A DNA stretch of 64,000 nt from Heptranchias perlo (lineage: Eukaryota): contig NW_027139559.1 of the NCBI RefSeq assembly GCF_035084215.1, positions 3,038,001-3,102,000 of the forward strand, read 5' to 3'. Both the position numbers and the translations under genes were made by a program. The notes beneath the pieces are model-generated. The model ran no database searches and was not told the origin of the DNA. It saw only the letters and a program-made list of their open reading frames with translations. How positions within the stretch are numbered: the first letter of the stretch is position 1; every line of letters starts with the position of its first letter. Of this stretch, positions 31,812 to 62,499 are shown piece by piece.

Positions 31812-31867
31812 CTAATGGTCTCTCCCTCTGCCCTATGCAAATCAGCTCACGCTCTCGCGATTTATAA
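31812..31867 (+). promoter_or_regulatory. IgNAR V promoter: heptamer-like element, octamer and TATA
   Basis: CTAATGG 31812-31818, perfect ATGCAAAT 31835-31842, TTTATAA 31861-31867; about 95-150 bp upstream of the leader ATG. Confidence 0.8.
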
Positions 31868-31961
31868 GGACGGTGCTCAGATACACACGGTTACACAGCA
31901 CAGTCGGTGTTGAGGTCTGGAGTTGGCCCTGTTTAAAGTGTTCACTGCTGGTGAAGAAACA

Positions 31962-32004
31962 ATGAATATTTTCTGGGTTTCGGTCCTTTTAGCCTCGTTA
32001 CCGA
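31962..32004 (+). CDS. IgNAR: IgNAR leader exon
   Basis: MNIFWVSVLLASLP plus phase-1 donor A|GTAAGT; resembles the IgNAR leader type MNIFLLSVLLAxLP. Confidence 0.93.
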
Positions 32005-32144
32005 GTAAGTGCATTTTATTAAAGAGATTAAATATTCCTTTAATAAAACTGTGTGGCTGCCTCCAAATTGTGGAAATTTCCTTGCTTTTAACTCTTGTAT
32101 TGTTTCAGAGACGCGATGTATAAAATATATTTTTCTCCATTCAG

Positions 32145-32429
32145 ATGCCTTCAGTGGAAGAGTAGTCCAAACACCGACAACGGCAACGAAAGAGGCAGGC
32201 GAGTGGCTGACCATCAACTGCGTCTTAACTGATTCTGGCGCTGCTAAGTTTCATAGCGCAAGATGGTACCGGCAATATCCGGGTACAATAGACAAGGTAG
32301 ACATATCCATTGGCGGACGATTTGTTGAATCGTTCAACTGGGGAGTAAAGTCTTCTCTGCGAATCAACGACCTGACAGTTGAAGACAGCGCCACTTATTA
32401 CTGCAAAGCTTACTACGGACTTGGTGTAC
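32145..32429 (+). CDS. IgNAR: IgNAR V (VNAR) exon, unrearranged, with extended 3' end
   Basis: Acceptor TTCTCCATTCAG; (N)[29 protein letters not shown]...WYRQ...[10 protein letters not shown]...[25 protein letters not shown]; lacks the CDR2 strands, as VNARs do. Confidence 0.96.
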
Positions 32430-32467
32430 CACAGTAATGAATCTTGGATTCCCGTAACACATAAACT
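32430..32467 (+). other. V-side recombination signal sequence, 22-bp spacer
   Basis: CACAGTA - 22 nt - ACATAAACT. Confidence 0.9.
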
Positions 32468-32792
32468 GTACCCAAACCTCTTAAAACAAAGTTAATACAG
32501 GTTATTCTCCAGGTGGCTAAAAACTTCACGGTTAAATACTCACTGTCTCTGTCAAGCATTGGCTAATATATTAAAAACTTTGTCTATTAATTTAGGTGAT
32601 TGTTGTGTATATGTTATAATCATATTAATAATGGAACTTTGATATTTCTCCAGGATTGGGATAAGAGACTGAGAATTCTAAACATCTGCTGGGATCCCAA
32701 TATAAAGGCAATGATTTGAATTATATTTACTGTATCTTTCAATCAATATCTTGGACTATCTGAAGGGATTTCTGTGACATTTGTAGCAATGG

Positions 32793-32868
32793 ATTTCTTG
32801 TGCTGATCTGAAACGATGTGTGGCTGCAGTGACACACTGACACAGTGACTCGGGCCACGGCACAAACC
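32793..32868 (+). other. IgNAR: IgNAR D segment (32821-32840) with 12/12 RSS
   Basis: ATTTCTTGT-12-CGATGTG | TGGCTGCAGTGACACACTGA | CACAGTG-12-GCACAAACC. Confidence 0.88.
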
Positions 32869-33181
32869 TCTCCAACAGTTATTTGTTTTACTACTCGTGA
32901 AGATGACTGCTTAATGTGCTTTCTTCCTTATGGTTGTTACTTCATAAAGTTTGAAATCAATTCCAATTCGATCTTTGGTGATAATCTAGCTGAATTCCAT
33001 GATATTAAATCAAGGGATTATCTTTTTCAGTGCTACAGGAGTTCGCATTGCACATTGTAAATATCTGGTTCGACAGAAACTGACGGAAAATTAAGATAGG
33101 TTAATGACTGCAGTGTATTGGAAAGGTCATTGCATCCGTGTTGTTTTGGTGTATTTATTACCGCACCTTAATTTCAATGAC

Positions 33182-33220
33182 CCTTTTTGAAGGAGGCTGA
33201 CTGGGAGCTGAAAGACTGTG
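33182..33220 (+). other. J-side recombination signal sequence, 23-bp spacer
   Basis: CCTTTTTGA - 23 nt - GACTGTG. Confidence 0.85.
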
Positions 33221-33277
33221 GCATTTACGGTTACTGTTCCTCTATTGGAACTGGCACCGTGCTGACTGTGAACTCTG
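33221..33277 (+). CDS. IgNAR: IgNAR J segment
   Basis: IYGYCSSIGTGTVLTVNS plus G|GTAAGT; GxGT-VLTVN is a VNAR FR4 motif. Confidence 0.93.
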
Positions 33278-33949
33278 GTAAGTGACCTCTCTTGCTACTT
33301 TATCAATAAGATTTTGTTCAGAGAAGATATGAAGAATTAGCATTCTCGTTAAAATGCTCTTAAGTGCACAGGGCAATAGCCGAAACTGTTTTTGGAGGTT
33401 CGGTTAGCTTCGCTGTCAGTTTATTTGGTTTAAACTTAATAATCTTTTTCAAAAGTGATTATGCTCGAGAATAAAACGAACCTATGTTTAAATATATAAC
33501 AATCCTGTATTTAAATACATAACGAACCTCAAAACAAGCCTGTTTACCACCTATGGATCATTTAAGATGCTGATTTATATAGTTATGAATCTCGCCGGTG
33601 TGATAGTTTAAACAGTTAAAACACACCCAGCCTAGTGCTGTTATTCTCCTTAGTGAGGCGGCGCAGCATATCCCTAATATACATTATTTCTGATTCGAAG
33701 AATTAATAACATTCTGTGGCGAGGAAAGTTTGCTGCAAACAAGGAATTAATTCAACGTGTAATTTTATGAAATATTGAGTACGAATTACTTTCCCCCTCT
33801 AAAATCACCCCTTATTCAATTAAAAAAAAACTGTTAAATTAATACCGGTACCGAACCTTCGAATATATTGTCCATTCGAATCTTGACATTTGTGACCCTG
33901 GATTAACGGCGCATGCGTCACAGTGACCCAGACAGAAAACAAAATGATT

Positions 33950-34232
33950 GGGGGTGAAATTGGTCTGATCGAGGAGCGCGGAACGGGCGATAGCAAATCG
34001 GCCGCCCGTATACACCGCGTCAGATTTTCCTTTATATTGACTTGGAAAATATTCGGAATTTTCTTCCGATCAAACCAAGTAAAACGGACAGTGAAACTAT
34101 CCGAATCTCCAAAAGAGCTCGAACTATCGTTCTGTCAAATTCAGTGGAAATAAGGCCTGGCGGGGTGTAAAACAGGCCGCCGATTCGCAAGGATCCCGTG
34201 TCGCGTTACTGGCGTAGGACAATTTCATCTCC
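33950..34232. mobile_element. Possible MITE / non-autonomous DNA transposon
   Basis: Imperfect terminal inverted repeats GGGGGTGAAATTG ... CAATTTCATCTCC around a CpG-rich core. Confidence 0.4.
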
Positions 34233-34409
34233 TATACTGTAGGTCTGTGGGAGGCCTGTTTCCATGGAAGCCAGTCTCCTGGACAGTCGCATTTCGGACA
34301 ACAGAAACACTCTGTGTTTAAGATTGTGCCGAGTAGCAGAGAACATTGAAATTGCGGTGGGTTTGAGTGTGAGAAGTGAAATTCTCTTTTAATGTCTGTG
34401 TACAGAAAT

Positions 34410-34524
34410 AAATGTAAGGAGTCTTACAACACCAGGTTATCGTCCAAAAGCTGTTGGACTATAACCTGGTGTTGTAAGACTCTTTACATTTGTCCACCTC
34501 AGTCTATCACCGGCATCTGCACAT
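34410..34524. mobile_element. Tiny Penelope pLTR-end hairpin insertion
   Basis: About 38-bp inverted arms (34410-34491) of the same CTTACAACACCAGGTTAT family as 11811-12603; flanked by AGAAATAAA on both sides. Confidence 0.75.
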
Positions 34525-35040
34525 TATAGAAATAAAGTAAACATTATTGTATGCCTCGTGGAGAATCGTGAAGTCTTTGACTCACTGTTTATACATTTTA
34601 CTGTCCGTTTCCTTATTTAATTTGAAGAAACAATGTGATTGTTTGGAGCCTGAGTGTTGGTCTGATAGACTGGATATTCAGTCAGCATTTCAAAGAGAGG
34701 AGAATCCCAGAGCTGATGTGCAGAGTAAGGGGGATGTTTTTTGCCATTCCATGGTCCGGATATCGCTTGCCTGGAGATTGGACAGGTTAAGCGTCGGTGC
34801 AGATGATGGGAGGGGCGGGTCCGCATACCTGGGTACCAAGCGACACTGAATCCGAGAAAATATGTCCCTAAAAATCATAAAACATTGAAGTCGATCTACA
34901 TAATTCCATTAAATACCCCCTGGTCAGGTACAATATGGGTTAGGTAGAAAAGAAGAATGTGTTTGCATTTATAAACGCATCTTCCATGACCTCGCGACGT
35001 TCCAAAGCGCTTTACAGCCAATGAATTTGTCGAGCAAATC

Positions 35041-35990
35041 CCCCTCTACACTGTGTCATACAACACTCCCAGTTCAGGAGCACTAGGGGTCAGATAGAGG
35101 GTACAGCTCCCGCTACACTGTCCCACCAAACACTCCCAATGCAAGTACAGCACAGGATAGATACAGGGTAAAGCTCGCTCGAGAATGTCCCGTCAAACAC
35201 TCCCAGTTCAAGAGCAGTAGGGGTGAGACAGAGGATACAGCTGCCTCGCCACTGTCATACATCACTCCCAGTTCAAGAGCAGTAGGGGTTAGACAGAGGG
35301 CACAGCTTCCTCTACACTGTGTCATACAACACTCCCAGTTCAGGAGCACTAGGGGTTAGATAGAGGGTACAGCTCCCGCTATACTGTCCCACCAAACACT
35401 CCCAGTGCAAGTACAGCACAGGATAGATACAGGGTAAAGCTCGCTCGAGAATTTCCCGTCAAACACTCCCAGTTCAAGAACAGTAGGCGTTAGACAGACG
35501 GTACAGCTTCCTCTACACTGTGTCATGCAACAATCCCAGTGCAAGTACAGCACAGGATAGATACACAGTAAAGCTCCCTCTACGCTGTTAAAACAAACGG
35601 TCAGAGGGCAGGTACAGCACGGGGTTAGATCCAGAATAAACGTCCATCTACACTGTCCCATCAAACACTCCCACCGCAGGTACACGGTTAGATATAGAGC
35701 AAAGCTCCCTCCACAATGTCTATCAAATACTCCCAGGTCAGGTACAGCAAGGGTAAGATACAGAGTTACGCTCCCTCTCCGCTGTCCCATCAAACAATCC
35801 TAGAGCAGGTACAGCTCGGGTTAGATACAGAGGAAAGCTCCCTCTACACTGTCCCATCAAACACTCCCAGAGCAGGTACTGCACGGGTTCGATACAGAGT
35901 TGCGGACCCTCGACAGTCTCCCATCAAACACTCCCAGGGCAGGTACAGCTCCGGTTAGATAGAGGGTAAAGCTGCTCTACACTCTATCCA
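35041..35990. repeat. About 67-bp minisatellite in the J-C1 intron, about 14 copies
   Basis: Unit like CTACACTGTCCCATCAAACACTCCCAGGGCAGGTACAGCACGGGTTAGATACAGAGTAAAGCTCCCT; a higher-order duplication with about 266-bp period is visible. Confidence 0.93.
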
Positions 35991-36879
35991 TAGGAGAAGG
36001 TAGATTACCAACCTTACCGGATACCAGAGCAGATTACCTGAATGGCCCCTGACATGGAACCTGAGAAAATGTCCAGCATAAAGCTCCCAAAATGTGGCAG
36101 TCAGTAACATTGGAGAATAGTGTGTTTGAACGGGAGCAACGAGATGCAGATTGTACTAGAAACACTGGTGAAGCGAAAAGTTTCATCACAGACATAGAAC
36201 ACGGCACTTATCGAAAGGAAAAACCTTCTAAGAACAGAAGAATGTGCGCGGGCAGAAACTCCGATTGGTTCCTTTGCACGAATCCACGCAAATTGTTCTC
36301 CCATGAATTCCCTCCGAAAACAACTGATACTCCCCAGTTTAAATAATCCTAAATCTTGCAACTTTCTCTTCCGAAATCACAAGACCATCCACTTAATATG
36401 TACGTTCCACTAAACCAGATGTCAACTGGTTTATTAAAAACGGGTTAACCCCTCTCGTAGGATAGTCAAGCGTTAACCGTGGTTCCCTGAGACGGCCAAC
36501 AGTGATTTTTAGGGTTAATTTCCTTCCTTGCCTCCTCTGAGCGAAAACAAGGAATGAAGCAATAGTATTAATATCTCTGTCAATGGTATTCACTTCACCA
36601 CTATCATTGGGAGATCTTTTGATATAATCACCCAATTCACGCAAAGATTGCAAATTTAGTACTTGCATTCTGTCGCCGTTGTTCAGATAAATAACTTGTT
36701 CACTTCCACCTCGTAGTTTCGTTAATTCATCTTACATTGTTTCAAAGATGTGTATCATTGTTTTAGTTTTGTAAAGCATCTGAAGTTGTCCTTTGAGATG
36801 TATCTCTTTCTCTCTGACTTATCCATTTTTTCAGCAGCCATTATTTTCCAGGCTCTTGTAGGAATCCAGCCCAACCCTG

Positions 36880-39800
36880 CCAATCATAGAATCATAGAAT
36901 GATACAGCACAAAAGGAGGCCATTCGGCCCATCGGTCGTGTGCCGGATCTTTAAAGCTAGCCAATTAGTCCCACTCCCCTATTCTTTCCCTACAGAACTG
37001 CAAATGCTTTCACTGCAATTCATGATCGAATTCCCTTTTGAAAGTTATTATTGAATCTGCTTCTAACACCCTTTAAGGCAATGCATTCCAGATCTTTGAA
37101 ATTCTCTGCTTAAAAAAAAATCTCCTCATCTCGCCTCCAGTTGCTTTGCCAATGACCTTAAATCTGTGTCCGCTGGTTACCGATCCGCCTGCCACTGGAA
37201 ACAGTGTTTCCTTATTTACCCTTTCGAAACCTTTCATGATTTTCAACACCTCGATTAAATATCCCCTTAACCTTCTCTGCTCTAATGAGAACAACCCGAG
37301 CTTCTCTAGTTTCTCCACGTAACTGAAATCCCGCATCCCTGGTACCTGGTAAATCTCCTTTGCACCCTCTCTAAAGCTTTGATATCCATCTTAAAGTGTG
37401 GTGCCCAGAACTCGACACAATACTCCAGCTGGGGCCTAAGCAGTGATTTCTGAAGGTTTAACATAACTTCCTTGCTTTTGTACTCTATGCCTCTATTAAT
37501 AAAGCCCGGGATCCCGTATGCTTGTTTAACAACCTACTTAACTTCGCGTGCGACCTTCGAAGATTTGTGTGTATATACCCCGAGGTATCTCTGTTCCTGC
37601 ACCCCCGTTAATATTGTACCAGTTTGTGTATGTTGTCTCTCCTCATTCTTCCTACCAAAATGCATCACTTCCAACTCACTGCGCTAAATGTCATTCGCCA
37701 TGTGTTTGCCCATTTCATCAGTCCGTCTATGTCCTCCTAAAGTCTGTTAATATCCTCCACATTGATTTCTACATTTCCGAGCTTCGTGTCATCTTCGTGT
37801 CATCCAGGTCATTAATATATATCACAAAGAGCAGTGCTCCTAATACCGACCCCTGGAGAACACCACTGTATACTTCCCTCCAGTCTGAAAAACAACCGCT
37901 TACCGCTGCTCTCTGCTTTCTGTCACTTAGCCAATTTCGTATCTAGGCAGCCACTGCCCCTTTAATTCGATGGGCTTCAGTTGTGTTATGCTATGTTCCT
38001 TGCACATTGAAAATATATCTATTTGATTGTATATCTCACTATAAGACATTCAGAGCGAGAAACCTCTCTGGCCCGTTGCACTTATTGCGAATTTGGGTCG
38101 ACGCTTCGGAATGATTCATCATCTATTCATTTTAGTCATTGGCAAATTTTGAGGAACACATTCCAGAATGGCTGGAGCCTGATTTTAATAAATTAGCCCC
38201 AGCCTTCTAATCTTCAAGTGAAAACAATGTGTTCTGTATCTCGCTATGCTTCTTTCCAACCAACGTGAAACGGCCCTCTCCCAGCCGTTGGTTTATAAGT
38301 CCATTGACATTTGGATTGAGGGATTTTGAAAATGTTATTGAGGAAGTTGTGGAGAAGATTTTTCGGAAGTTCCTTGGATAAGTATAAATACTAAAGAGTA
38401 AAGTTAAAAATTGGAACCAACTAACCTAAGGATGGGATTAGATTAGAGATGTAAAAGGGAATCTTCTCCAGAAAGGTGAATGAATCGCAGATGTTAGACA
38501 AGGACTTAGTCTCGGTTTCTACAGAAAAGTGTGTCCGTGGGAATGGAAGTGTAGAGCGGGAGAGTGAGGTGCAATTAGATTGAATAACTAGAGATAAGTA
38601 AGGAGTGCTGAGAAGATTGTTGGAACTCATTCTATCCTCGAATGTTGAGAACAGACAAAAAGCAAATAGCAGATGCTCGGCCCACGAATATTCAAACATC
38701 CTAGGATGTGGAATTTGTGCCAGAGGACCGAGGTAAAATCTTTCTCAAAGAAGGGGAAAGGTTTACATAGGGTAAACGCGGGGCCGTCGGCTTACCGTCA
38801 GTGCTGGATCATCTTCTAGAGTCATATTACTGGAGAAAATTAACATTCACTTACAGAGGCATTGTTTCATTAAAGACAGCTAGCACGGATTTGTAGAAGG
38901 CAAGTTCTCCCTGATAAATTTAGTTTGACAGGTCTTCGAAGAACTCTACTCATTCCCATGTTTAATTCTGGTCACTGCACCCCAGGAAAGTTAGATTGGC
39001 CTTGGAGTGGGTCGACCGCAGATTCACCAGAATAATACATGGGACAAAAGGGTTAAAATATGAGGCAAGATTGAATGGATCAGGATTGTATTCCCTTTAT
39101 TATAGAAGATTAATGGGTGATCAAATTAATGTGTTTAAGATGACAAAATCATTTAACAGGGTAGATAGAGAGAAACTATTGACTTTGTTGGGGGAATGCA
39201 GAACAAGAAGGCATAACCTTAAAATTAATGCTATGTCGTGTCAGGTGGTTGAAACGATACCAAATAATGGGTTTGTTAATCAAGTAAAGTTGTTCATTTT
39301 CAATATTCGCAAAGGACTTTGCAGAGGAAGCACAACATTACATTATCAAGGAATATAAAAAAGGAACAGTAAAGTATTCTACAGACACATAAATAATCAA
39401 AGGACAGAGTTAGGGCCACAAAGGGAAGCACAAGATAAACTCGCAGGTAATGGGCAGCGACATGGCAGAAATATTGAATAGTTACTTTGCCTCAGTATTT
39501 ACCAGGGAGAATAATAAGGTGGGCAGAATATTAGAAGAAAAGATTTTTAAAAACATAAGACTTTTAAGATAGAAAATGGGGGAGATAATTGATCAACTAA
39601 GCAAGCATGGAGAGGATCAAACCCCTGAACCGTATGGATTTCATCGGCTCATAATAAAAGAAGCTAGGGAGGAGATAGCAGAGGCACCATTAGATATATC
39701 TAAAAATTCATTAGAAAGGGGAATAGTGCCACAAGACTGGTGGACAGCTAATGTGAAAACTATATTTTAAAAAGGAGATCAGAACAAGTCCAGGGAATTA

Positions 39801-42300: not shown

Positions 42301-43365
42301 GAGATATTAGTAGATTTATTTTTATTATGGAGAGGGCTGTTAGGACACAGAACCTCCTACCAAAAACAAAAAAACAATGCTGTTTGCAGAATCATAGTAT
42401 CATTGGAGGTACAGCACAGGCCGGAGGCCATTCGGACCATTGTGCCTCTGCTCGCTCTTTGAAAGAGCTACCCAATTAGTCCCACTCACCTGCTCTTTCC
42501 CCATGGCCCTGTAAATTAGTTTTAAATAGGAAGTAGGCAAATATTTGAGAAACAAGGTATCGGGAAAGAAGAGGCGAATGGAACTGCGCACATCCGGCCC
42601 CTGATTATAGGTCCCTTCAGGTGAATAGATATAAAATCACAAGCCAAGCCAGGAATGTACAATTTCCCCATGTACACTCCCGCCGTGCGGCCTGGGCGGG
42701 CCCAGCGGAGTTTCTACTGCTAAGCGGATAGCTCTGACACAGAGCCCGCAGTGTCGCGATGGGCCGAAAGAATCCTTCTGTGCTGTAAAATATTTTAATT
42801 CGATCCCTCCCTCACCTGACATTACCAAAACCATTGCTGTCTCTGACCTCTGATGTTACAAACTCGTTGCTGCAATCGTCTAGAAATCCAAACAACTCCT
42901 TCCTTAAGAAACGCCGGTTGCAAAATATTCCTCGGTAAAGTGACGACATGAAACTGCTCCATCCCCAGGAAAATTAAAGCATGTTACTGGTAACAATAAT
43001 CGATGTACATTTAATATCTGACTGTCACTACACACCACTGCACAGTATCGATATTTTTTCGCATAGCACATTGATCATTATTCACTCCGAAATTAACAAG
43101 TGATAAGAACATTATTTGAATGTTCGTTCATGACCGGAACTCATTTATCCCAACACGCCCACTGTAATATCAGCTCATTTAAACCCAGCTTCAATGCATC
43201 CATGTGTGTTAAATTTGGCGGTGTCCGTGGCTGCGAGCAACGTGATATTGACTAGATAATCTGTTTTCGGTGTTGGTTGGGGAATAAGTATTGACCAGGA
43301 CTCGATATAAACGGTTTAATTGTCATTATAGAAGCGAGTAAGACTTTCTTTTTTAATTTTCTCAG

Positions 43366-43683
43366 TAAAACGTACTCCACCGATCATCAGTCTCCTCTAC
43401 TCTGCAAGTGACGAACTGACAGCAAAAGGTTTTGTGCATCTGGTTTGCCTCATCAGCGAATATCAGCCAGAAAGCATTGCAGTGAGCTGGCAGAAGAACG
43501 GGAACGCTGTACAATCGGGCTTTACAACCACATCCCCAATTAAAAATTTGAATGGAGATTTCAGCTCCAGGAGCATCCTTAAAGTCACCCTGCAGGATTG
43601 GAACAGCGGGTCTCTTTACAGCTGCCAAGTGTCCCATTCTGCAACCAACAGTAACCAGCGGAAAGACATTAGAAAAACATCAG
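43366..43683 (+). CDS. IgNAR: IgNAR C1 exon
   Basis: (V)KRTPPIISLLYS...FVHLVCLISEYQPESIAVSWQKN...YSCQVSHSATNSNQRKDIRKTS; 318 nt, AG/GT, phase 1. Confidence 0.96.
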
Positions 43684-44409
43684 GTGAGAAAATGCAACCA
43701 ATTCACAAGCTTGCACAGGTGAAACATGTTGACTTTCTTTCTCAGTATTGGATTAGTTGGGATGTTATTGTGATAATTTATCTGTGCCAGTTTATGGTGC
43801 AGTGAGACAGTAAAGATCATTGGGGATGTTTCAGCAGCAATGGCTGAGGTTCCTGAAGGTGCTCGCTGCCGGGCGGATGTTGCAAAAGGCATGACTATGA
43901 GATCTTGACAAATACATGAATATTATTCTATGGTCAGGGTAACACATTGATCAGCTCTTTCATGATATTGCAAGCAATTTACAAATAATTGTGATACATT
44001 CACCAGATCAATCCAGGTGAAACAGAAAGGAAACAGAACAGAAATGTATGTTTTACACACAAGGGATCAAACTTTAACAATGCGGTTCTGTTACTTTTTA
44101 CATTTGTGAGGATTTATTGTGTGTGATACTGGGTATCAGTACAAAAATGTGTTTAAAAAAATGAAACGGGTGAGAGACGGACGGAGATAGAAACGAGAAA
44201 GGCAGAGAGAGAGATGGACAGAGAGGGGGTGCTGTATAAAGATTGAACCTACAGATACGGACACAAAACCAACAATGAGCTGTTCTTCCTTTCAAAGATT
44301 TTGTTTAAACGATACGGGTAAGGGCCGGGGAATACGACTAAGTGGATAGCACATTCAGAGAGCCAGCAGACACGATGAACCGAATGGCCTTCTGAGCTGT
44401 CGAATTCAT

Positions 44410-44847
44410 TCAATCTTTCTCTCTTTCTTTGTCTCCCTCTCTCTCTCTCTCTCTCTGTCTGTCTGTCTCTCTCTGTGCCTCTCTCTCTCTGTTTGTATCT
44501 CTCTCTCCCTCTGGTGTCTCCCTATATCTGTCTCTCTCTATTTGTCCCTCTCTGTCTCTCTCTGTTCCTTTCTCTCTCTCTCTGTCCCCCTTTCTCCGTC
44601 TTTCTCTGTCTTTTTCTCTGTCCCTATTTCTCTTTCTATATATATATATATATATATATATTTCTCTCCCACCCTGTCTCTCTGTAACTGTCGTCCTGCC
44701 TCTCAGTTTTTCTTTTTCCCTGTCCTACTCTCTCTCTGATTCTCTCCATCAGTCCCTTTCTCTGCCTCTCTCCCTATCTGTCTGTCACGCTCTGTCTCTC
44801 TATGTCCCTCTCTCGCTCTATGTCTTTGTTTCTCTCTCTCTCTCTTA
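44410..44847. repeat. (CT)n-rich polypyrimidine tract with embedded (TA)n
   Basis: Direct inspection. Confidence 0.95.
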
Positions 44848-45057
44848 GCTTCGTTGAGTTGTACATAGTTTTGATTCGACTCAACATACGCGCAAACACC
44901 AAATTATTTTTAAAAATTCAATAATAATCAGTGAGAGACATATTCACATCATACCGTGTTATGGATTATCAATGAAATTGAAATCCTTGATAAATTTCCG
45001 AAACCATCAACACTAAATCATCGCCCCGATTCTGAATCTCTCGTTTCTCACTGACAG

Positions 45058-45360
45058 AGCTCACGGTATTTCTCAGAGATCCTTCCGTTGTCGAAGTTTG
45101 GATCAATAAAACTGCCACCCTGGTGTGTGAAGTGGTCTCTCCGGTTCCCACTGAGGTTACCATCTCTTGGACAGTGGGTGGAAAGATAAGGAATGAAGGA
45201 GTTCAAATTGAACCAGCTAAAAAGGATGGAAACCAGTACCTGACAATCAGCCACTTGACCAGCAGCGTGGCAGAGTGGGATAGCGGGGTTGAATACTCGT
45301 GTTCTGCACAACAGGGTCAATCATCTCCTCCGGTATTAAAACGAATCGGAAAGATAAGAG
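45058..45360 (+). CDS. IgNAR: IgNAR C2 exon
   Basis: (E)LTVFLRDPSVVEVWINKTATLVCEV...SWTVGGKIRNEGV...EWDSGVEYSCSA...KIR; 303 nt, phase 1. Confidence 0.96.
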
Positions 45361-45436
45361 GTGGGTAAAATATCTATAGACATGTCTTCGAATGGCAATG
45401 GATGGAACACTAACACTTATTGAACTTCCGTTACAG

Positions 45437-45754
45437 TCGAGCCAGTCAAACCAAAGCTCCGCCTCCTTCCTCCATCACCAGAGGAGAGTCAAAGTAGGAG
45501 CGCCCCGACTCTCACATGTCTGATAACAGGATTCTACCCTGACAACATAATCGTTTCCTGGGAGAAGGACGGAGCTGCTTTAAGCACGAACGTTACCAGT
45601 TTCCCCAGTGCTCTTGAACAGGACCTAACCTTCAGCACAAGGAGCAACCTCATTTTGCCTTCAGAGGAATGGAAGAAAGGATCAAGATACACCTGTATCG
45701 CCTCACATCCCCCTTCACAATCCGACGTGAAGGCGACCATCCGCAATCTGAAAG
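45437..45754 (+). CDS. IgNAR: IgNAR C3 exon
   Basis: (V)EPVKPKLRLLPPSPEE...LTCLITGFYPDNIIVSWEKDG...EWKKGSRYTCIASHPPSQ...IRNLK; 318 nt, after a 76-nt intron. Confidence 0.96.
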
Positions 45755-48700
45755 GTACGGACCGTTTTTCAAAATACATTTACACAATCAGTGATTTTTA
45801 CTTAAATCTCAGACCAAACTCGTACCACACACGCACTTGTGATCGGATCCCCATAGGTTACAGGTATAGCAAAATATATGGATATCAATGAATGCGCCTT
45901 TAATTCACAGACAGCAATTGGACGATAAAATGATCAGCACTCTGAATATGTTCGCCGCCACAAGCTATGTGAGGACCCAATGGTAAGAAGGGGCACGTTA
46001 AGGATCTCTTCAACCTCACTGCACGGTACCCTGGTGATTGTGGGCTTTCTTTAAACAGCAATATGCAGTAGCTAAAGACACTAAATCCACTTATCACCAG
46101 GCAGAGTGTTCCATACTATGTGGGGAGAAGACTTTGAGTGGCGTTTACTTCACTCTGCACTGCCTGGTTTAGGTTTAGCTGGACACTGAGTGGTTGCCAG
46201 CAGCGAATTTAAAGACAAAAAAGCAGCTAGTACTCAGGGGACGCAACCAATTGATGTGAGGAACTTTGTACATTTCATGTTTTCAAAGCTTCTGAACCGC
46301 CAGCGCTAAACGTCAGAGGAGACAGAAAGGTGTCAATTGACTGAACTCAATGATGTGACCTTCTGTTTCAATGAGTGTAAACTCCGCTCGTGTGATGAGT
46401 TTGTTTCATCTCTAATTGTTTTTTTCGATCAAATTGAAGAGTTTGCACAATAACCGGCCCAGCACCACCGTGCTAGGCGTGGAGAATCGTTCAAACCTCT
46501 GTCGATCTTAGGTTGGTTCCCCGATTACTGCTGAGTTCGTTGATCTCACCTGGTGGCGTTCGGGACCTTATAATCGAGCTTAGTGGCCCGCGATTCGTGA
46601 GGTGGCAATAGCGCATTGTTCTGCTCCTGGTCTCTGGTAAGTGCGTGTATGGTCATTCTGGGAACAACAAGATAGGAGTTGCCTGCGATGCCCTGACGAT
46701 ACAATAGCCTACTGATACTGCGTATGAGCACTCGCGAAGTATCGACCCCTGAGAATTGGATGAGGTACCGGACGTCGACCTATAGTTCACATACACGAGT
46801 GAGGAAAAGAGAGGATATAATAGCAAACCCGGCAATTAGACTCAAACTCGAGCTCCTCCGATTGGTAAGCTCCTGTACACTAGAATGGCCCTGTACAGTA
46901 AGAAGGTGCTGTGTTTCACCCCCGGATCTTCACTGAGTTAACTGATCTCAACTGGTATCTTTTTGGAAGTTCCGGTGGACTACGCACATCCGGGTTACTG
47001 TGGAGAAACCCGTTCTTGTCTCTTACTCGGTTCGGGGGAGACCTTGTTGAAGTCGGGGTGTTTACACCTCTGCTGAGGGCAGGATTGGACGGGGCTTTGC
47101 TGCTTTCACTGTAGAGTAGGCTGTTGATGCGCAGTCTTTCTGCTGATTCACGAAGAATGGCCACTTGAGAGATACTCAAGGCGACCTTCTCCAGTGAAGC
47201 TTGTACCGGAGTAGCAATAAAAACAGACATTTATATATCATCTTTAAGCGCCTCATACCATTTCACAGAGTTGTAAGGAAAACATAACCAAGTTAAATAA
47301 GGGAAGATTATGAGGCGTGACCAAAAATCTTGCTGGGTTTGAAGGAGGGTCTTAAAGTGGGAGCAGGAGGGGGAGAGGCGGGGAGGATTAGGTCGGAAAG
47401 TCCAGCGCGAGACCTGGGATCTAATCAAGGTATCACCACCTTCCTTATGAATGAAAAAGTGTTGTCCGTTTTGTTATTTCTTGTCCTATTCCCGGATCAG
47501 TGGAGTTCCACAGAATGATCAGCGGACTGAAGTTCATACAACACCGACATGGTTTATTTCAGCCACTCAGTGAATGAGAGTCAAAGTAAAAGATCATCGT
47601 TACAGCTACAAACGCCACACTTGTTGCTGCTATAAGAGCTTCCTTACGTTTTCACTCAATCTTTGGCTCCCTCAGATATCAAGGTTAAGTCCCTGAATTA
47701 TCCCTTTTGGTTATCGCTCGCTTCTGACTACTCCAAAAACGGTCTTTTTTTGATAAATTTGAAAATGTCAGTTGACTTTTCAGTGGATTATTCCATGAAA
47801 GCAGCAGCGGATCGACGCTAGAATCTTGTAGAGAAGTACAAATAATTACCATCCTGGAAAGCCGGCTCCATTAACCGAGAGTACAAAGGCCATTTTCCAG
47901 CGGTTGCCCAATTTATTATTAAATCTTCGATCATTCGTACTCTGCACAGACCCAGAAAGTTGATATTTCATATGTCCCCTGAATATCCAAGTGCATTTAG
48001 GTGTCTACTCAAATAGTGGCGGCATAAAGCCTAATGTGGACTTCCCAGAACAATGGTTTGTACAAATTTCACTCCATTTTCACTGGGATTGTTAGACGAT
48101 CATTAATAATATCCTGTAAAACGTACAGCAGAATTTTCCTCCAGTTCTGCTGCTCTGTAAACTGTTACACGATTCTCCCTGTTTGGGTTTGGTTCTAATT
48201 TTCCAATGTGGCATCGTATTGCCCTCAGGTAGAAGCCATGCATTAACAGACTTTTAAAATACCAGGAGGCGTCTGGGATGCTTCCTTACTTCGTTCGTTG
48301 GGAATCCAGGAATATATCCCAATTAGTACAGTTAAAATTAAAACTAAACCGAGTATGTTGTAAATCAGAAATTAGAACAGAAAGTGCGAGAAAAACAGAG
48401 CAGGCCCTTCAGAATCTGTAAAGATAGATGGTGTTGTATGATCCTTACTGAGAACTGAAACCACTCTCTGGAACTGTCTGACCTCCTCAGCCCCACGCTG
48501 TCCTTTCTGTGTAGAGATGCCTCAAAGTTGCTGACTATTTGCAGCATTTCCTGTTGTTATTAACGATATTATCCCGTCGGGTCTGCTCATCCAATGCGAA
48601 TCAAATGCTGTGACTTCCTTTGTAGCACACACTTTTTTCGCCTTTTAGTATATTACAGATCCCAGGTCGATCTTCCCCGAAACTAAAGTCGCCCATTGTC

Positions 48701-50182
48701 TTCATTTTAGAAGACTGAGGTGAAGATCTCATTGTTGCAATCAGACCATTTCCTTCAGTTGGAATTTCTGCTGCTTGTTGCTTCCAAATACCCCTGTGTT
48801 GAAACTCAGTTTACTGCTTCAACTTATGGAGATGATTCACCTTGTTACAACCAATCATCTATTTTCTTCTTACCCTCCTATCATTTCATTTTACTGTTAA
48901 AGGATGGTCATTTTTGGAAATGAGGTATTGCACAAACCCCTTCAGATAAGAGTGACCTAGTAACACACACTGTGAAATAAACCGCACTCATTTTATGAAA
49001 GGACGATAACCTACTGTGATTAAATCAGAGATCCCAGTAGACAAGTATATAGTCATATCTGAGAAGGTGGAAGGAGAGAGAATGGAAGTGATTGTAATCA
49101 GTCCGGTAACAGTTTTTATAACACTCCCCTCTGGAGCATTGGCATCATTGAGAGAAATGGAGCAATTTTAGTGTAAGATTACAAAACAGAGTTACAATAT
49201 TGGACATGTGCAATGGGCCCGTCACTTTGGTCCACTGTGGGGCGTTGGAAAGTTCAGAGTTGAAATCCCAGGTGAATATAATGAAGGCGGAGTCTATAAT
49301 TTTCAGGGCAATACATTAAGCTTTTATCGAGAACGCGGTGGGAGGATTCCTTAAGATTGTATCTCATGCATAAAGTAACGATTTCGACGCTCAGAGTGGC
49401 TCTTTTACTTTAAAACTGAAGGCATGCTCTCCCACTTTCTGGTAGTACTTCCGTTCCTGCTCTCAAGGTACGGATACTAGAGAAAACCTTCCCACTGTTA
49501 CTAGTGTAGATATAGAGCAGGACTGGACCAGGTATATCATCGTGAAATCATAGAATTCCTCACTTTACACTCTTCAAACGATGCCTCTTAAAACTCAACC
49601 TTCCAAAAGCGCTCCCTCCTCGGTCTGATTGGCAGTTTGTATTTCTCTACACTGTCTACCTTCTCTAAGTGAGAGAGCAAAATCGGTGCCAAATGACGCA
49701 GAACATCCGCAGATTGGTGCTGAGGGCACGTTTGCTTTCGCCGTTGATTTGATTGGTCGGTCCGAGACAATCTCATTTCAGACCCAAGCTTTCGAACTGG
49801 AAAAGAGAGGACCTTTATATGAGGTGTATTGGAACCCGCTACATACAGGCCACAGGGCAGCGTTTGACCTCCAGCATCAGTCAGTCTGAAGGGTGAAGGC
49901 TTGCATCACCAGAGCGGGCAAAAAGAGGTCCCCATTTTAAAACAGTCAGTTCTCGAATAGTGGAATGTTGGGATATATTGTGGAGGAAATCATTCAATGA
50001 AGCCAGAGGGACGGAAACAACGAGCCCAGATGGGCTCTGTCTTATTAGCTCAGCAGAAATAAGCTGAGAAAACTCATAACGGCCGACAGTAAGTATGATT
50101 TAACTTTTTGAATATGTTGCAGTCGTTATTACCCGTGGTTTCAACATGACACTTTGAAATTACCATTCCCTCTTCTTTCCAG

Positions 50183-50503
50183 AAGTATGTCATGGGACAG
50201 ACATTTCTGTCACCATACTGAACCCTTCTTTTGAAGAGATCTGGACCAAACGAACAGCGACCATTGTTTGTGAAGTCGTTTATAGCGATTTAGAAAACGT
50301 CAGCGTGTCCTGGCAAGTGGATGGGAGTCGGAGAACGGAAGGAGTGGAGACTCAGGCTCCTGAGTGGAATGGAAGTAAATCCACAATCGTTAGTAAACTG
50401 AAAGTCACCACGACAGAATGGGGCAGTGGGGTTGAATATTTGTGCTTTGTGGAAGACATTGAATTGCCAACACCAGTGAAAATCTCCACCAGAAAAGTAA
50501 AGG
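50183..50503 (+). CDS. IgNAR: IgNAR C4 exon
   Basis: (E)VCHGTDISVTILNPSFEEIWTKRTATIVCEVVYSDLENVSVSWQVDG...YLCFVEDIELPTPVK; 321 nt; N-terminal extra Cys. Confidence 0.96.
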
Positions 50504-50579
50504 GTAAGCACAGATAATATTCGTTCAGAGACTGACCCTACTCCATCAATGGTCGTTAAAGATCATTCATTTTCTACAA

Positions 50580-51280
50580 TAAGGATAGTGATAGACTTCA
50601 AGATGATATAGACAGGCTGGTGGAATGGGCGGACACATGGCAGATGAAATTCAACGCAGAAAAGTGTGAATTGATACATTTCGGTAGGAAGAAAGAGGAG
50701 AGGCAATATAAATTAAAGGGTACATTTCTAAAAGGGGAACAGGAACAGAGAGACCTGGGGGTATATCTGTCTAAATCGTTGAAGGTGGCAGAGATAGTTG
50801 AGAAAAAGATTAATAAAGCATACAGGAAACTGGGCTTTATAAATAGAGGTAGACAGTACAAAAGCAAGGAGGTTATGATGAATCTTTATAAAACACTGGT
50901 TCGGTCACAAATGGAGTAATGTGTCCAGTTCTGGGCACCGCGCTTTAGGAAGGATATGAAGGCCTTGGAAGGAGTGCAGAAGAGATTTAATGGAATGGTT
51001 CCAGGGATGAGGGGCTTCGGTTACGTGGTTGGACTGGAGATGCTGGGGCTGTTCTCCTTAGAACAGAGAAGGTTATGAGGATATTTGATAGAGGTATTCA
51101 AAATCATGAAGGACCTAAACAGTGTCGATAGAGAGAGACTGTTCCCATTGGCTGAAGGGTCAAGAAGCAAAGGACATAAATTTTCAGGGCTACGGGGATA
51201 GGGCATGGGAGTGGGACTAGCTGGATTGCTCTTACAGAGAGCCGGCACGGACTCGACGGGCCGTAACCATTCTATGATAT
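50580..51280 (+). mobile_element. CR1 3' fragment in the C4-C5 intron
   Basis: EWADTWQMKFNAEKCELIHFG...MMNLYKTLVR. Confidence 0.88.
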
Positions 51281-51631
51281 CATGAAATGCTCGTATAATT
51301 AGTGAAACATAATCCGGGATCCTGCCATTCACCCAACGGGTAAAGAATAGCGAGACAATTGCATGCGGTTTGAAACTGTTGTGTCCCAACAGATTCAATG
51401 TTATCCAAATATGAGATTCTCTCCAACTCTTTGCAAGCTAACATTAGGTCACAATGAAAACCACCAAAAGAAAGAACATTAAAGAAATCCATGGCCCCGC
51501 AGTGGGATGTGTAAACTTTCTCAGATAACAATTCCAAATGTCCAAAAGCGCATATTACCAGCAGACGGGAATGCGAAGTGAAGAAAGGACAAGAGACAGA
51601 CTCAGTTTAACAAATATTGTTCTCTTTCCAG

Positions 51632-52005
51632 TTGACGGAATGTATCCTCCGAAAGTCTACGTCCTGCCTCCATCAGCGGTCGAGATTGAAACTGAGAAGA
51701 CGGCAACCCTGGTGTGTTTAGCAACCGGCTTTTACCCTGCCGAGATTTACGTCGCGTGGTTGGCCAATGACACCCTTTTGGATTCAGGTTACACCACCCA
51801 ACCGGACACGGAGAAGGAAAGTGGTTCCAGCTCCATTGTCAGCAGACTGAGAGTCACCGCAGCGGAGTGGAACAGCGGGACCACTTACTCCTGTTTAGTG
51901 GGACACCCGTCTCTCACAATGAATTTACACAGAAGTATAAATAAATCTTACGGTAAACCTATTTTAGTTAATTTTCCATTTATTCTAGCCGACAGTTTTC
52001 AATAG
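51632..52005 (+). CDS. IgNAR: IgNAR C5 exon with secretory tail; internal donor after 51952 for the membrane form
   Basis: (V)DGMYPPKVYVLPPS...LVCLATGFYPAEIYVAWLANDTLLDSGY...YSCLVGHPSL...NKSY|GKPILVNFPFILADSFQ*; donor G|GTAAAC. Confidence 0.96.
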
Positions 52006-52331
52006 TGTACATAACCCCCCGTGGTTCAATAGCTTTTTTCTATAGAAGTGTTAGGGCTGTTATGTTCGAGCATCTGAGTCAGCGCGTCTCCCATTTATCG
52101 TGCGTCACAGTCACCGTCCAGTTCAGCTAACCATTGTTTAGATATTTCGCAAATCTGTGAAACTATATCAGTGAATGAAGGATAATTACGGTTAGAATCC
52201 GATAACGGTGAATAACCTTAATACCGCTTTATACAAGTTGCAATATTTTTGAAGATTCTTTGAAGGGTTTCGTGACGTTATTGGATAAACTGGAAATTAT
52301 GCTTTCGTATGTATGTGTCTCCGCAAATTAC

Positions 52332-52388
52332 AATAAATGCAGAATGAAAACCTCCTGACTTCCCGATTCGTTGTTTGTGTGCGTGTTA
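52332..52388 (+). terminator. Probable secretory-form polyadenylation signal
   Basis: AATAAA 52332-52337 followed by GT-rich TCGTTGTTTGTGTGCGTGTT. Confidence 0.7.
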
Positions 52389-52659
52389 TCTTCGAGATGA
52401 TGGTTTAAGCCTTGATCCAGAAATCTATGGTGTCCATTGTCTAATATTCCACCTGTGCAACACGTTTCCATTCCCCAACTTTTTACAAACACTCGTGATG
52501 CTTTTAATCAGGTTACATTCATTCTCATCATAATTAGAGTCTTCAGGGGCTGCTGTGGTTTACAATTAACCCATGAGGTATCAACCTGTGAATGGAATTA
52601 ATAAAGGTCGACAAACATCCGGTCACCCTTTAGAACGACAATTATTCACCAAGACTGGT

Positions 52660-53775
52660 AATTGCCTGGTTGCATTCTTATCTATCCAGTCATAGCTTGG
52701 GCATCTCCTGCAATGACTTCTCTTCCCGCTCCCACATCGTTACCTCTGGAGTCCCCCAAGGATTTAAATTTGGAAACTGCTATTTCTCATTTTCTGCTGC
52801 CCCTTGTCCACATCATTCGAAAACAAAATGTTTGATGCTTCATGTGTGCTGACGACACCCAACTGTAACTCACTAGCACCACTCTCGAGCCCTCCACTGT
52901 CTCTCATTTGTCACACTGCTTATCCGACATCCAGTACTAGATCCGCAGAAATGTCCTCAAATTAAATATTGGGAAGACCAAAGCCATTGTCTTTGGCCTC
53001 TACCACCAACTCTGTTCCCTAGTAACCGACTCCACCTCTCTACCTGCCCACTGTCTGAGGCTGAAGTACACTGTTTGCAACCTCGAGTTCCTAATTGACC
53101 CTGAGCTGAGTTTCCGACCCCAGATACTCTCCTTCATCATGACCGTCTACTTCCACCTCAATAACGTCGGCCGTCTCTGCCCCTACTCTCATCCATGCAT
53201 TTGTTACCTCCTGACTTGGCTACTCCAATGTTATCCTGGCCGGCCTCCAATCTTCCATTGTCCGTAATCTTGACATCATCCAAAACTCTGCTGCCCGTAT
53301 TATAACTCACAACAATTTCAGTTCCTCCATCACCCCTGTGTTCGGGGAACTACATTGGCTCCGGGTCTGGCAATGCCTCAATTTTAATATTCTTATCCTC
53401 TTGTCCTAATCCCACCGTAGCCACGCCCCTCCCTACCTCTGTAACCTCCTCCAGCCCTAGAACCCTCCGAGATCTCTGCGATCTTCCATTTCTGGCCTCT
53501 TGTGCATTCCCGATTTTCACCTCTCCACCGCTGGCGGACGTTCCTTCATCTGCCTTGGCCCTAACTTCGGAAATTCTCTCGCTAAACCTCTGCGACTCTC
53601 CAACTCTCTCTCCTTTTAGACCCTCTGTAAACCTGCCTCTTTATCCAAGCATTTGGTTACCTGTCCTAATATCTTCTTATGTGGCTTGGTATCAAATTTT
53701 GTCTGATTGCGCTCATGTGAAGCGCCTTGGGACGTTTTACTGCGTTAAAGGCGCTATATAAATGAACTTGTTATT
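52660..53775 (+). mobile_element. L2-type LINE 3' portion, degenerate
   Basis: VTSGVPQG, ADDTQL-like and IQNSAAR-like remnants; tail GTGAAGCGCCTTGGGACG...GGCGCTATATAAATG. Confidence 0.8.
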
Positions 53776-54929
53776 GTTCTTATATTGAGCTATTAATCCA
53801 TGCCATTGTAAAAGGTTTCATTGACTTTGGAACTATCCTCTTGTCAGTGTCGTGTCATCTTGGATCATTGACAGCTCTCTGGCTTCTGAATTCGAAGATT
53901 GTGGGTTCAAGCTCCTCTCCAGGACTTCGGCCCATAATCTAGGCTAACACTCCAGCACAATAATCATGGGGGTGCCGCATTGTCGAAGGTGTGGTGTTTC
54001 GGATGAGACGCTTCTCCTGGGCGCCGTCCGACTGTTCAAGTGGGTGTTAAAGATCCCATGGGAGAATGAAGGAGCAGCGAGCTCTCCCGGAGTGTGGGAC
54101 CCGTATTCCATCCTGAACCTACACGATATATAAAACAGACTAAGCGTCCCATTAACGACAGTGATGCTCTTAGGTCCTTGTTATGGGTTGATTGGCTGCG
54201 GGGTTGTTTATAAAAGTAACAGCGATTACACTTTAAAAAGTAATTATTTGGTTGTGAAACTTTTGGGACCTCCTGTGGGGGTGAAAGGCGATCTATGAAG
54301 TGGAACCATTGTTTCTTATCATCGTCGTCATTCCGGCTGATATCGCTTCAGTTGAAACACAGGTCAGGGAGAAACACAGATTCGGCCAATGGAAAGCTGA
54401 GCAACAGAGATGAAGAACCGTCTCAGAGAATCCCAGCCCACAGCGAGTCAGCTGATCCCATCCTTGCCACCAATAGTGGCGCTGCATTTTCTTCCCAAGA
54501 GAAAAAACAGTTCGTTAATTAGAATGTCCGGTTGAAACTTGATAAGTGCAGACGCCAAGCCTGAACCAATTGCCCAGGTTCGCGAACTGGTGGGCAGGGC
54601 GGAATCCAGGCCCATCCGCAAAGACTCACCACCTTCTGAAAGGGGGGAAGCAACTGGTCTCGCAAAAAAAGAGCAACATGCAGCAATTACACCAATCACT
54701 TAGACACGGTGCATTCTGTTAAGTTTCTGTTATACTTGGTATGCTGTGTGGGGCACAAAGCATGAGTCCAAACAGGTTAACCTTCGTGGTTTTGAGATCT
54801 GTCAGGTGAGGGAACGCTACACCTGGTGGCTAGGTTTTGGAAAATACGCTCACGTATCCAAATTTGCACAACTATCATGACTGGCCGGCGGAGAGCCAAG
54901 CTTGTGTTGCTGAATCTTGGTACCTCCAG

Positions 54930-55290
54930 CTGGAGGAGCCGCTGTTCTATGGGGTATCTTATCTATCCATGCTGGAGGATATCTTGGTGAGGTAGTGCAG
55001 CCGCCGTTCTATGGCATATCATCTCTATCCATGCTGGAGGATATCTCTGTGAGCTGATGGAGCCGCCCTTCTATGGGGTTTGGTATCTATCCATGCTGGA
55101 GGATATCTCGGTGAGTGGATGGAGCCGCCCGTCTATGGGGTATGGTATCTATCCATGCTGTGGGATATCTCGGTGAGATGGTGGAGCCGCCCTTCTATGG
55201 GGTATGCTATCTATCCATGCTGGAGGATATCTCGGTGAGTTGATGGAACCGCCATTCTATGGGGTAAGGTATCTATCAATGTTCGAAGAT
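54930..55290. repeat. About 62-bp tandem repeat, 6 copies
   Basis: GGAGCCGCCCTTCTATGGGGT...TATCTATCCATGCTGGAGGATATCTCGGTGAG repeated. Confidence 0.9.
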
Positions 55291-56770
55291 ACATCACTGT
55301 GCTGCGTATCTCACTCCGCAAATGACACATCCTTGATTCACTGGCCTCGACTTATGCCCAGCTGCACCTAGTTAGTGAGCAAATTGATGTGCTGCCCTTC
55401 TCACGGTGCCAATCTGTGAATCCCACAATACGGCATCAGATAATGCTAATGAAGTGCATTCGAAATCGGATAGCTCACCGGAGATTGAACTTTCGCTTTC
55501 ACATTTTAAACAGAAAGGACTTGCTTTGGAGTCGGTTTTACGCCCTAGCGTGTTGCTATTTAGATCACGTAGCATGTCAGTTCACTGTGGAAGAACACTC
55601 GTAGAGTGAAATCTATGATTTGTAAATAACCATACAAATTTGTGACAATATGACAAAGTTTACTCTGCGCCAGGTCAGTCACTACTGCGATTATGATGCT
55701 TTGAGTTTCAGAATCCAATCGCCTACACTCAATACAAATACAATGCCCCACCAACGCCCCACCCACCCCCCACCCCTCCCCCCCCCCCCGCCCCAAAATC
55801 TCGGCCAGGATTATCATAGCCCGACAGTCTACATGACCGGAGATTTGTCAGTGGTGACACATTCCGAAGTTTAAGGGAATTGTTAACTTAATTTTCAATT
55901 CTGGCTCTCATGGCCAAAACGTTAGGGATAAAGCTTCATATCGTGTTTTTATTACAGAGTATTAGTGGCACCATACTGGAATATACGCTGCGGTGTGTTA
56001 TAGATTCCACGAGATAATAATAATAGAGAAAACAAAAAATTGTACAAGAAATATATCAGGTCAGGAATACGAAACCTAAAAGTATGTCAGCGTCATCACC
56101 GTGAATCACAACTAAATCTAATGACAGTGATGCAGGTCTAACGACACTGTGTAGATGACAATGTGAAATAGTTTATATATAGTCCTATTTCCGAACGCGT
56201 CTGTATTTGCAAGTAACCTGTTACATAAAATGTCAGTAGGTGACGACCGTCGAATATAAGTGCGCTGATCAGACATAGTTGAATCTTTAGCCCGAAGTGT
56301 TTCCCTGTCCCCGCTTTACTGGCGATCTCTTATGTCAGTTTATGTGAGCCGCAAGAAATTTGGTCCTATAATCAGATCAACTTCTGTTCAGAATGGTATC
56401 GAGTTTCATTCTTTTACACAGAACTTCATTAATTTTATTGTTATCCGCTGCCAAAACAGAAAGTAAAGCTGTTTTATTCGCTGAAACGTAAAAAGGACGG
56501 ATATTTGTTTGCTGTATAAAATCAATTTCCTGTTCTGTATACAATATCTGAACTCTACTATCACTATAGGAGTAGCCCCATTGTTCTGAAAGTCACTGTA
56601 ATCGATATCGGGCTGGTTAATATGTTAGCTAGATTTTTATATTCCGTCAGTGCAAATTCAAATACACCATGTCCCTCGGGACTGCCGGTTTCATTTTATT
56701 GCAGCGCCTTTGTATCTATTCTGTTCTCAACATGAACACCTTTCTAACAATATCAATCTATTGGTTCTAG

Positions 56771-56928
56771 AAACCCCTCAAGTAAAGGACGATCCAGAAG
56801 ACCCCGAGGTAGAGGAAGAAGGATTAGAAAACTTATATGAGGATGGCAGCACGGCATCAACAGTGATCGCTTTCGTGATTCTGTTTATTCTCAGTATGCT
56901 GTACAGTACATTTGTAACCGTACTTAAG
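56771..56928 (+). CDS. IgNAR: IgNAR transmembrane exon TM1
   Basis: (E)TPQVKDDPEDPEVEEEGLENLYEDGSTASTVIAFVILFILSMLYSTFVTVLK|GTAATA; acidic spacer plus membrane-Ig LF..S..YSTFVT motif; phase matches the C5 internal donor. Confidence 0.93.
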
Positions 56929-59710: not shown

Positions 59711-59739
59711 TAAAAAAACATATACATTTTATATATACA

Positions 59740-62360: not shown

Positions 62361-62499
62361 CGGTTCTACAGGTTAAGAAGAAAGTGTAGGGCGGGGGGGT
62401 GGGAATAATTGGATAGATCTTTCAAAGAGCGGTCACAGTCACGACGGACCGAATGGCCTGCTCCTGTGCTGTACTGTAGTTTGATGCTATCATACCATG

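Follow-up and report, generated by a model that had tools for sequence, protein, structure and literature searches.

Several shark antibody genes are described as partly or fully assembled in the germline. According to the text of PMC4622739, nurse shark type III IgNAR is encoded by a partly germline-joined cluster that needs fewer rearrangements and yields less diversity in complementarity-determining region 3 (CDR3); type III IgNAR of the dogfish is given there as unjoined. In the bamboo shark, which has several germline-joined clusters per genome, IgNAR2, IgNAR5 and IgNAR6 carry pre-joined D segments; three of the four complete clusters are reported as pre-joined in D, and IgNAR6 is juvenile-biased (text of PMC8692893). 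Germline joining of V to D is described for partly joined IgM clusters (VD-J and VD-DJ), whose products pair with a light chain, unlike IgNAR, and nurse shark IgM1gj, in which V is fixed and the constant region altered, is secreted mostly in monomeric or dimeric form (texts of PMC5192425 and PMC4279169). Here we describe a further arrangement. A 64-kb stretch of the Heptranchias perlo genome (the window, meaning the whole stretch of DNA that was analysed) carries a complete IgNAR cluster in which V, D1 and D2 are already joined. This IgNAR variant is real, old, present in several copies and at least partly transcribed. On balance we favour the view that the window copy belongs to a five-copy IgNAR subfamily that works as a restricted-diversity, covalently unlinked antibody class beside ordinary IgNAR.

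The gene is partly pre-assembled, like type III IgNAR or IgM1gj, but it is not a type III member. In type III, D1 and D2 are joined, V is free and three joins are left, whereas here V, D1 and D2 are joined and two of the four junctions (VDD to D3 and D3 to J) still have to be made. CDR1 of type III has a Cys and a conserved Trp and the joined CDR1 here has neither (compared with the text of PMC4622739). Also unlike type III, the joined genes here exist in several copies, and most of the complete ones have lost the tail Cys. Type III is further marked by a restricted CDR3 and by high neonatal expression. The type III analogy drawn in the initial annotation of this DNA thus stands for partial joining, but not for the type of join, the CDR1 Cys or the CDR1 Trp. 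The text of PMC8692893 describes joining of D segments rather than of V to D in the bamboo shark, and a conserved tail Cys. IgM1gj differs in being fully VDJ-joined and in missing one C domain (texts of PMC5192425 and PMC4279169). No V-D1-D2-joined or Cys-less IgNAR was found in the literature searched, where figures and supplements may show a V-D joined IgNAR. In exon plan, recombination signal sequences (RSSs) and C domains, the joined copy is the same as the ordinary type II IgNAR of this genome and three shark proteins. The IgNARs of horn shark, houndshark and basking shark (P0017, P0018 and P0005) are 71-75% identical to it over C5 and the tail; all three keep the CDR1 Cys, and the tail sequon and Cys are kept in the paralogues, P0017 and P0018.

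Searching the genome with the V exon gave 17 matches, five at 99-100%, six at 73-76% and six at 44% identity; the last six resemble, and presumably are, NAR-TCR V genes. The assembly thus contains 11 IgNAR V genes, ten of them with C exons. Five of the 11 have an identical germline V-D1-D2 joint, and the same D3 and J. The six ordinary V genes comprise five with V, D1, D2, D3, J and eight RSSs, and one that is fully rearranged; unjoined paralogues retain three free D segments, as against one in the joined copies. Alignment to an unjoined cluster shows that the joint consists of the V end, seven bases of D1 and 12 bases of D2, followed by D2's own RSS and flank. Both RSS-bounded spacers are missing, the coding ends are trimmed by a few bases, there are no N bases and the sole substitution is synonymous. 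The pre-joined CDR3 start noticed earlier is therefore a true V-D1-D2 join. Loss of RSSs and spacers, trimming and little or no N addition are the marks of a RAG-made germline joint as given in the text of PMC2193156, which reports trimming and little TdT activity in nurse shark light-chain germ-cell joins. Since joint, D3 and J are shared by all five copies, the join was presumably a single event and was later duplicated.

Four joined copies lie at separate places on the window's 7.8-Mb contig (C1392), with flanks 1-4% apart; the fifth is on contig C284. The C284 copy shows zero or nearly zero differences from the window over ~17 kb, and C284 resembles the window's contig over 70 kb, and partly over 200 kb, upstream, but not over 350 kb downstream, so this copy may be an allele or a duplicate of the window copy. 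The joined copy at 5.79-5.83 Mb of C1392 is chimeric: it is of the joined type from promoter to C3, ordinary afterwards, and ends in a normal tail. The copy at 6.786-6.790 Mb is an orphan VDD-D-J, whose similarity to the others stops 4.5 kb after V. The fully rearranged ordinary V gene, on a 36-kb contig (C572), is an in-frame VDJ with G-rich, N-like additions at the junctions; on the 5' side it is 99% like clusters C402 and 5.54M, on the 3' side 98% like 0.80M and 7.44M. To us it looks somatic; it may stem from a B-cell clone that was captured by the assembly, and possibly from an inter-cluster rearrangement.

The product of the joined V exon is a VNAR. It is a V domain without CDR2, its best 21 sequence matches in the PDB are VNARs, and a Foldseek search with its model gave TM-scores of 0.73-0.80 for the top ten matches, the top 50 being VNAR structures or nanobody entries. 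Its divergence from unjoined clusters is 15-16%, compared with 1-5% in the C exons (95-99% DNA identity) and 8 of 62 bases in the tail, in agreement with the earlier remark that the deviations concentrate in the antigen-binding site and the tailpiece. The loop indels mentioned there are also present, as CDR1 is one codon longer and the end of hypervariable region 4 (HV4) one codon shorter; several surface aromatics are new. The CDR1 Cys, present in five of the six ordinary V genes, was replaced on the joined lineage. When the changes in V were polarised with four other shark IgNARs as the outgroup, 16 were joined-derived, three unjoined-derived and four ambiguous (P 0.004), whereas those in C1-C5 split 10 to 8. 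The 23 loop positions account for nine of the 16 joined-derived changes (P 0.009), and loop codon changes number 8 versus 2.5 expected under neutral drift (P 0.002); the loop bounds follow VNAR numbering and were set after the alignment had been seen, so that these loop P values are indicative. As the plain ratio of nonsynonymous to synonymous divergence (dN/dS) of V is below 1 (0.65-0.81), the case for positive selection rests on the polarity of the changes and their location in the loops. V has an excess of tandem differences (20 of 39, P 0.007). Germline hypermutation or a regional mutator as the source of the V divergence is unsupported, because divergence in the leader intron, in the D spacers and in the J intron does not exceed that of distant introns (8-12%).

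The cysteines of CDR3 have changed as well. D3 has been lengthened by an 8-base tandem duplication and its only stop-free frame is the one that encodes a Cys. Unjoined D3 encodes a Cys in the same frame, and the D3 Cys is therefore not new. Compared with the usual unjoined J, that of the joined copies has two additional codons, and a new Cys stands four residues before the first Gly of framework region 4 (FR4). The derived Cys changes are thus a gain in J and a loss in CDR1, and the D/J Cys pair, previously listed as a deviation, is new in its J half but not in its D half. We predict that CDR3 would be largely inherited and closed by its own D3-J disulfide. Such a domain lacks the CDR1-CDR3 disulfide of type II VNARs, its CDR1 Cys having been replaced. 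The extra FR2 and FR4 Cys of type I are absent too, since FR2 has none and the J Cys lies in the CDR3 part. Type IV (IIb) has no extra Cys; the V exon here is free of non-canonical Cys, but J and D3 each encode one. The proposed type V, as described in the text of PMC6576789, combines a CDR3 Cys pair with a CDR1 Cys pair, and CDR1 here has no Cys. Hence, the predicted CDR3-internal disulfide matches none of types I-V as described and could provide a new nanobody scaffold. A further D-J join within J was considered and rejected, as the J RSS and flank are intact.

The second region of change is the secretory tail. Both the sequon and the terminal Cys are retained in seven of the ten tails; all three tails lacking both are from joined copies. 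These three are among the four complete joined copies and include the window copy, in which the N-x-S sequon is lost and a stop stands directly before the terminal Cys; they thus lack the penultimate Cys and N-glycan sequon of a polymer-forming tailpiece. Six of the seven codon differences in the tail are joined-derived versus ~2 expected (P 0.013). The occurrence in three copies and the clustering of these six changes argue against a local decay confined to a single copy such as that at 1.65 Mb. In mammalian IgM, the tail Cys retains unpolymerised subunits and links them, the glycan sets polymer size and hydrophobic tail strands drive assembly (text of PMC12031937). Accordingly, covalent IgNAR multimers should be lost in the Cys-less copies. 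The Cys-less tail is more hydrophobic, and non-covalent association may occur.

The joined lineage is not young. Noncoding sequence differs from that of the unjoined cluster C402 at 493 of 4708 sites and by 15 indels, three of them multiples of three, and the ~10% gap between joined and unjoined clusters extends from the promoter to the first transmembrane exon (TM1). At the mutation rate of another species, the epaulette shark (7e-10 per generation in the text of PMC10587355), the clusters split of the order of 75 million generations ago, a figure that dates the cluster split and not the join. In spite of this age, the leader, V, J, C1 and C2 contain no stop or frameshift, versus ~3.5 expected under neutral drift over half the joined-unjoined distance (P ~0.03), and all three indels in V and J are in frame (P ~0.008). 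No trace of recent conversion is seen in V, J, C1 or C2, and yet their frames are still open. Nonsynonymous differences in C1-C2 (17 of 454 sites) are well under the intron rate (P 9e-8), and the synonymous ones (12 of 161) are consistent with introns. For C1-C5 and TM1 together, dN/dS is 0.49-0.59 in six comparisons (Fisher P 0.014-0.094, three below 0.05), about 0.5 rather than near 1 as for a young pseudogene; this ratio is unreliable because C3-C5 and TM1 diverge far less at synonymous sites than the surrounding introns do.

Transcription was examined in two (X2 and X3) of the three listed runs of one sample, probably RNA by our guess, whose age and tissue are not stated. Run X2 contains a 212-base contig in which the leader is spliced to V and which matches joined V across CDR1 and HV2 with no mismatch; it fits the window, C284 or 5.80 Mb copies. 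An X2 contig also spans 31914-31995 with no mismatch. Five copies, a ~10% intron split, preserved frames, loop-focused change and a spliced transcript all speak for the specialised subclass of the initial annotation and against a young pseudogene. Its term "semi-invariant" is an overstatement, since two junctions are still left to RAG/TdT and a repertoire was not observed.

The following course of events would account for the findings. A single RAG-made V-D1-D2 join presumably arose in a germ cell, followed by duplication of the cluster. A B cell would then need only two further joins, so that ~20 residues of its CDR3 would come from the germline. Since CDR1 has lost its Cys and J carries one near its start, the D3 Cys would be left as the sole partner of the latter; a bond between the two would make one D3 frame preferred and tie CDR3 back on itself. 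CDR1, HV2 and HV4 have probably been remodelled by selection to suit fewer kinds of ligand, and the secreted product of three of the four complete copies would be a simple two-chain protein lacking multimers linked through the tail. Both a restricted diversity and secretion in unlinked form are likely, and an early-life expression advantage is plausible by analogy only. A bolder version of this scheme is a tentative possibility that we would not rely on: a dedicated innate-like IgNAR class, the counterpart of IgM1gj, in which the germ-cell join was fixed and amplified to nearly half of the IgNAR V genes, positive selection made a stapled site with new surface aromatics for a conserved early-life ligand, and a monomer-only tail was rebuilt independently.

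A number of observations weigh against a working antibody class. The predicted local distance difference test score (pLDDT) of the V-only model is 74 compared with 84 for ordinary V, and 69 compared with 92 for residues 61-70; the V models lack the J strand and the alignment contained more near-copies of ordinary V. Over the whole V the change events are modestly above neutral (14 versus 9.4 expected, P 0.08), and several changes of the joined lineage are at conserved framework sites. Synonymous differences in C3-C5 and TM1 are only 6 of 293, far under introns. The C3, C4, C5 and TM1 exons (45437-56928) are 0.6-3.5% from ordinary clusters while the surrounding introns differ by ~10%, which suggests exon-limited gene conversion able to mask decay. 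The depth of the joined leader-V contig is 7, compared with 113-224 for ordinary IgNAR (113 for the ordinary J-C1 contig), contig depth being a poor gauge of expression level. Run X3 contained ordinary sequence only and no joined V, and no VDD-D3-J junction, joined-type J or C1 was seen in either run. As unrearranged D-J spacer sequence of ordinary clusters is present in the runs, the joined leader-V contig is possibly a sterile transcript. One of the five joined copies is truncated and without any C exons, none being found within 38 kb of the orphan at 6.79 Mb. The copy at 5.80 Mb has a normal tail; join and tail loss are therefore separable, and the non-polymerising character claimed earlier is a fair inference for the other three complete copies but does not extend to this one. 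In the window copy, the second transmembrane exon (TM2) has lost its stop codon, alone among the nine clusters examined, giving a frame of 105 residues that runs beyond the first polyA signal. The other eight clusters, the near-identical C284 copy included, retain the stop, and its loss could stem from either a private mutation or an error in the assembly; should the loss be genuine, the membrane receptor of the window copy could be impaired, with the sister copies unaffected. An orthologue with the same features in other sharks had been envisaged, but protein searches returned no V above 66% identity in other species and joined-type features in none of the IgNAR Vs inspected; the libraries were clustered and thin for sharks, which makes this absence weak.

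Part of this evidence would fit a minor lineage in slow decay, which the join had made dispensable, with V and tail drifting, conversion tidying the C exons and transcripts remaining sterile. The low synonymous divergence in C3-C5, the TM2 stop loss, the truncated copy, the premature tail stop, the lower V model confidence, the low contig depth and the lack of a junction agree with it. We nevertheless consider decay unlikely, because V, J, C1 and C2 are open without signs of recent conversion, have acquired in-frame indels only and changed in the loops instead of evenly, and because the RSS heptamers are retained and there are five near-identical copies. Another reading takes the gene for a working, ordinary adaptive IgNAR in which the join was a neutral accident, adult diversity is broad owing to two junctions and hypermutation, and the altered tail is of little consequence since some sharks secrete monomers only. 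Nurse sharks are without IgNAR multimers according to the text of PMC8692893, in which pre-joined D is also the commoner state among complete bamboo shark clusters; two junctions do remain, and the 5.80 Mb copy combines joined V with a normal tail. The strongly one-sided change in germline loops and tail, and the shift of a Cys from CDR1 to J, both of which suggest a changed role rather than a neutral variant, make this improbable in our judgement. Confusion of a germline gene with a rearrangement from a somatic B cell, or with a duplication made by the assembly, is already largely refuted and highly improbable: the assembly does include one N-rich VDJ and a C284 copy nearly identical to the window, but the same joint without N bases recurs at four places of one contig with diverged flanks. 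We retain the interpretation as a restricted-diversity, covalently unlinked class as the more probable one.

A long-standing question is whether shark antibody genes joined in the germline serve a purpose or are a by-product of RAG in germ cells. With joined and unjoined sisters in one genome and a join that can be traced base by base, selection after the join becomes measurable. Furthermore, the Cys-bearing and Cys-less natural tails on near-identical constant regions offer a comparison for the formation of IgNAR multimers, the manner of which is called unknown in the text of PMC8692893.

The layout of the cluster is given in Table 1. The window contains it from the promoter through TM1, and TM2 lies beyond the window. 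The leader, V, D, J, C1-C5, the secretory tail and TM1 all have open reading frames and AG/GT ends. All six domains have Pfam V-set or C1-set matches, a Cys pair is present in every C domain and the Trp is visible in the translations. The extra N-terminal Cys of C4 is presumably the inter-chain bond site. The heptamers of the four remaining RSSs are those of the unjoined clusters C402 and 5.54M. The octamer/TATA promoter, open exons, conserved Cys and Trp and RSSs reported initially were all confirmed by motifs, translations, Pfam and heptamer identity; of the canonical phase-1 splice sites the AG/GT ends were correct, but TM1 ends in phase 0.

Table 1. Features of the V-D1-D2 joined IgNAR cluster (window positions, except TM2)
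Feature	Position	Strand	Support or remark
Promoter: octamer (31835-31842), TATA-like box (31861-31868)	31835..31868	+	motif layout common to 11/11 clusters
Leader exon	31962..32004	+	splice to 32145 (GT..AG) in contigs of runs X2, X3
VNAR V exon body	32145..32410	+	sequence alignment, VNAR fold
Germline-joined D1 (32411-32417) and D2 (32418-32429) remnants	32411..32429	+	in frame with V
22-spacer RSS, from D2	32430..32467	+	same as D2 3' RSS of clusters C402, 5.54M
D3 (32821-32840) flanked by two 12-spacer RSSs	32793..32868	+	
23-spacer RSS and J (33221-33277)	33182..33277	+	
C1 exon	43366..43683	+	open frame, translation, Pfam
C2 exon	45058..45360	+	open frame, translation, Pfam
C3 exon	45437..45754	+	open frame, translation, Pfam
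C4 exon, extra N-terminal Cys retained	50183..50503	+	open frame, translation, Pfam
C5 exon, end is GT donor for membrane form	51632..51952	+	open frame, translation, Pfam
Secretory tail	51953..52005	+	6 residues changed; polyA signal 52332
TM1 exon	56771..56928	+	open frame; exon ends in phase 0
TM2 exon	G000:C1392:3105257, ~3.3 kb past window end		common to all 9 clusters examined

A short exon-like stretch at ~62371 was considered as TM2 and rejected, since the real TM2 is common to all nine clusters examined. The kilobase around TM2 of the window copy looks converted from a cluster like that at 5.80 Mb. In the TM1-TM2 intron, a LINE-like insertion at ~59000-62400 is present in the three Cys-less copies and not in the others, as seen from alignment gaps and intron lengths. 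Tandem or simple repeats occupy 30870-31250 upstream of the promoter, 35030-36000 in the J-C1 intron and 44400-44850 in the C1-C2 intron. A 2-kb stretch of C284 is a young repeat with at least 40 copies on many contigs, 98-100% identical over 2 kb. The unjoined cluster at C1392:2458389 has a TGA stop in V and intact C exons. The NAR-TCR-like V genes on C240 have a single free D and V ends longer by several codons, which are perhaps further germline V-D joins.

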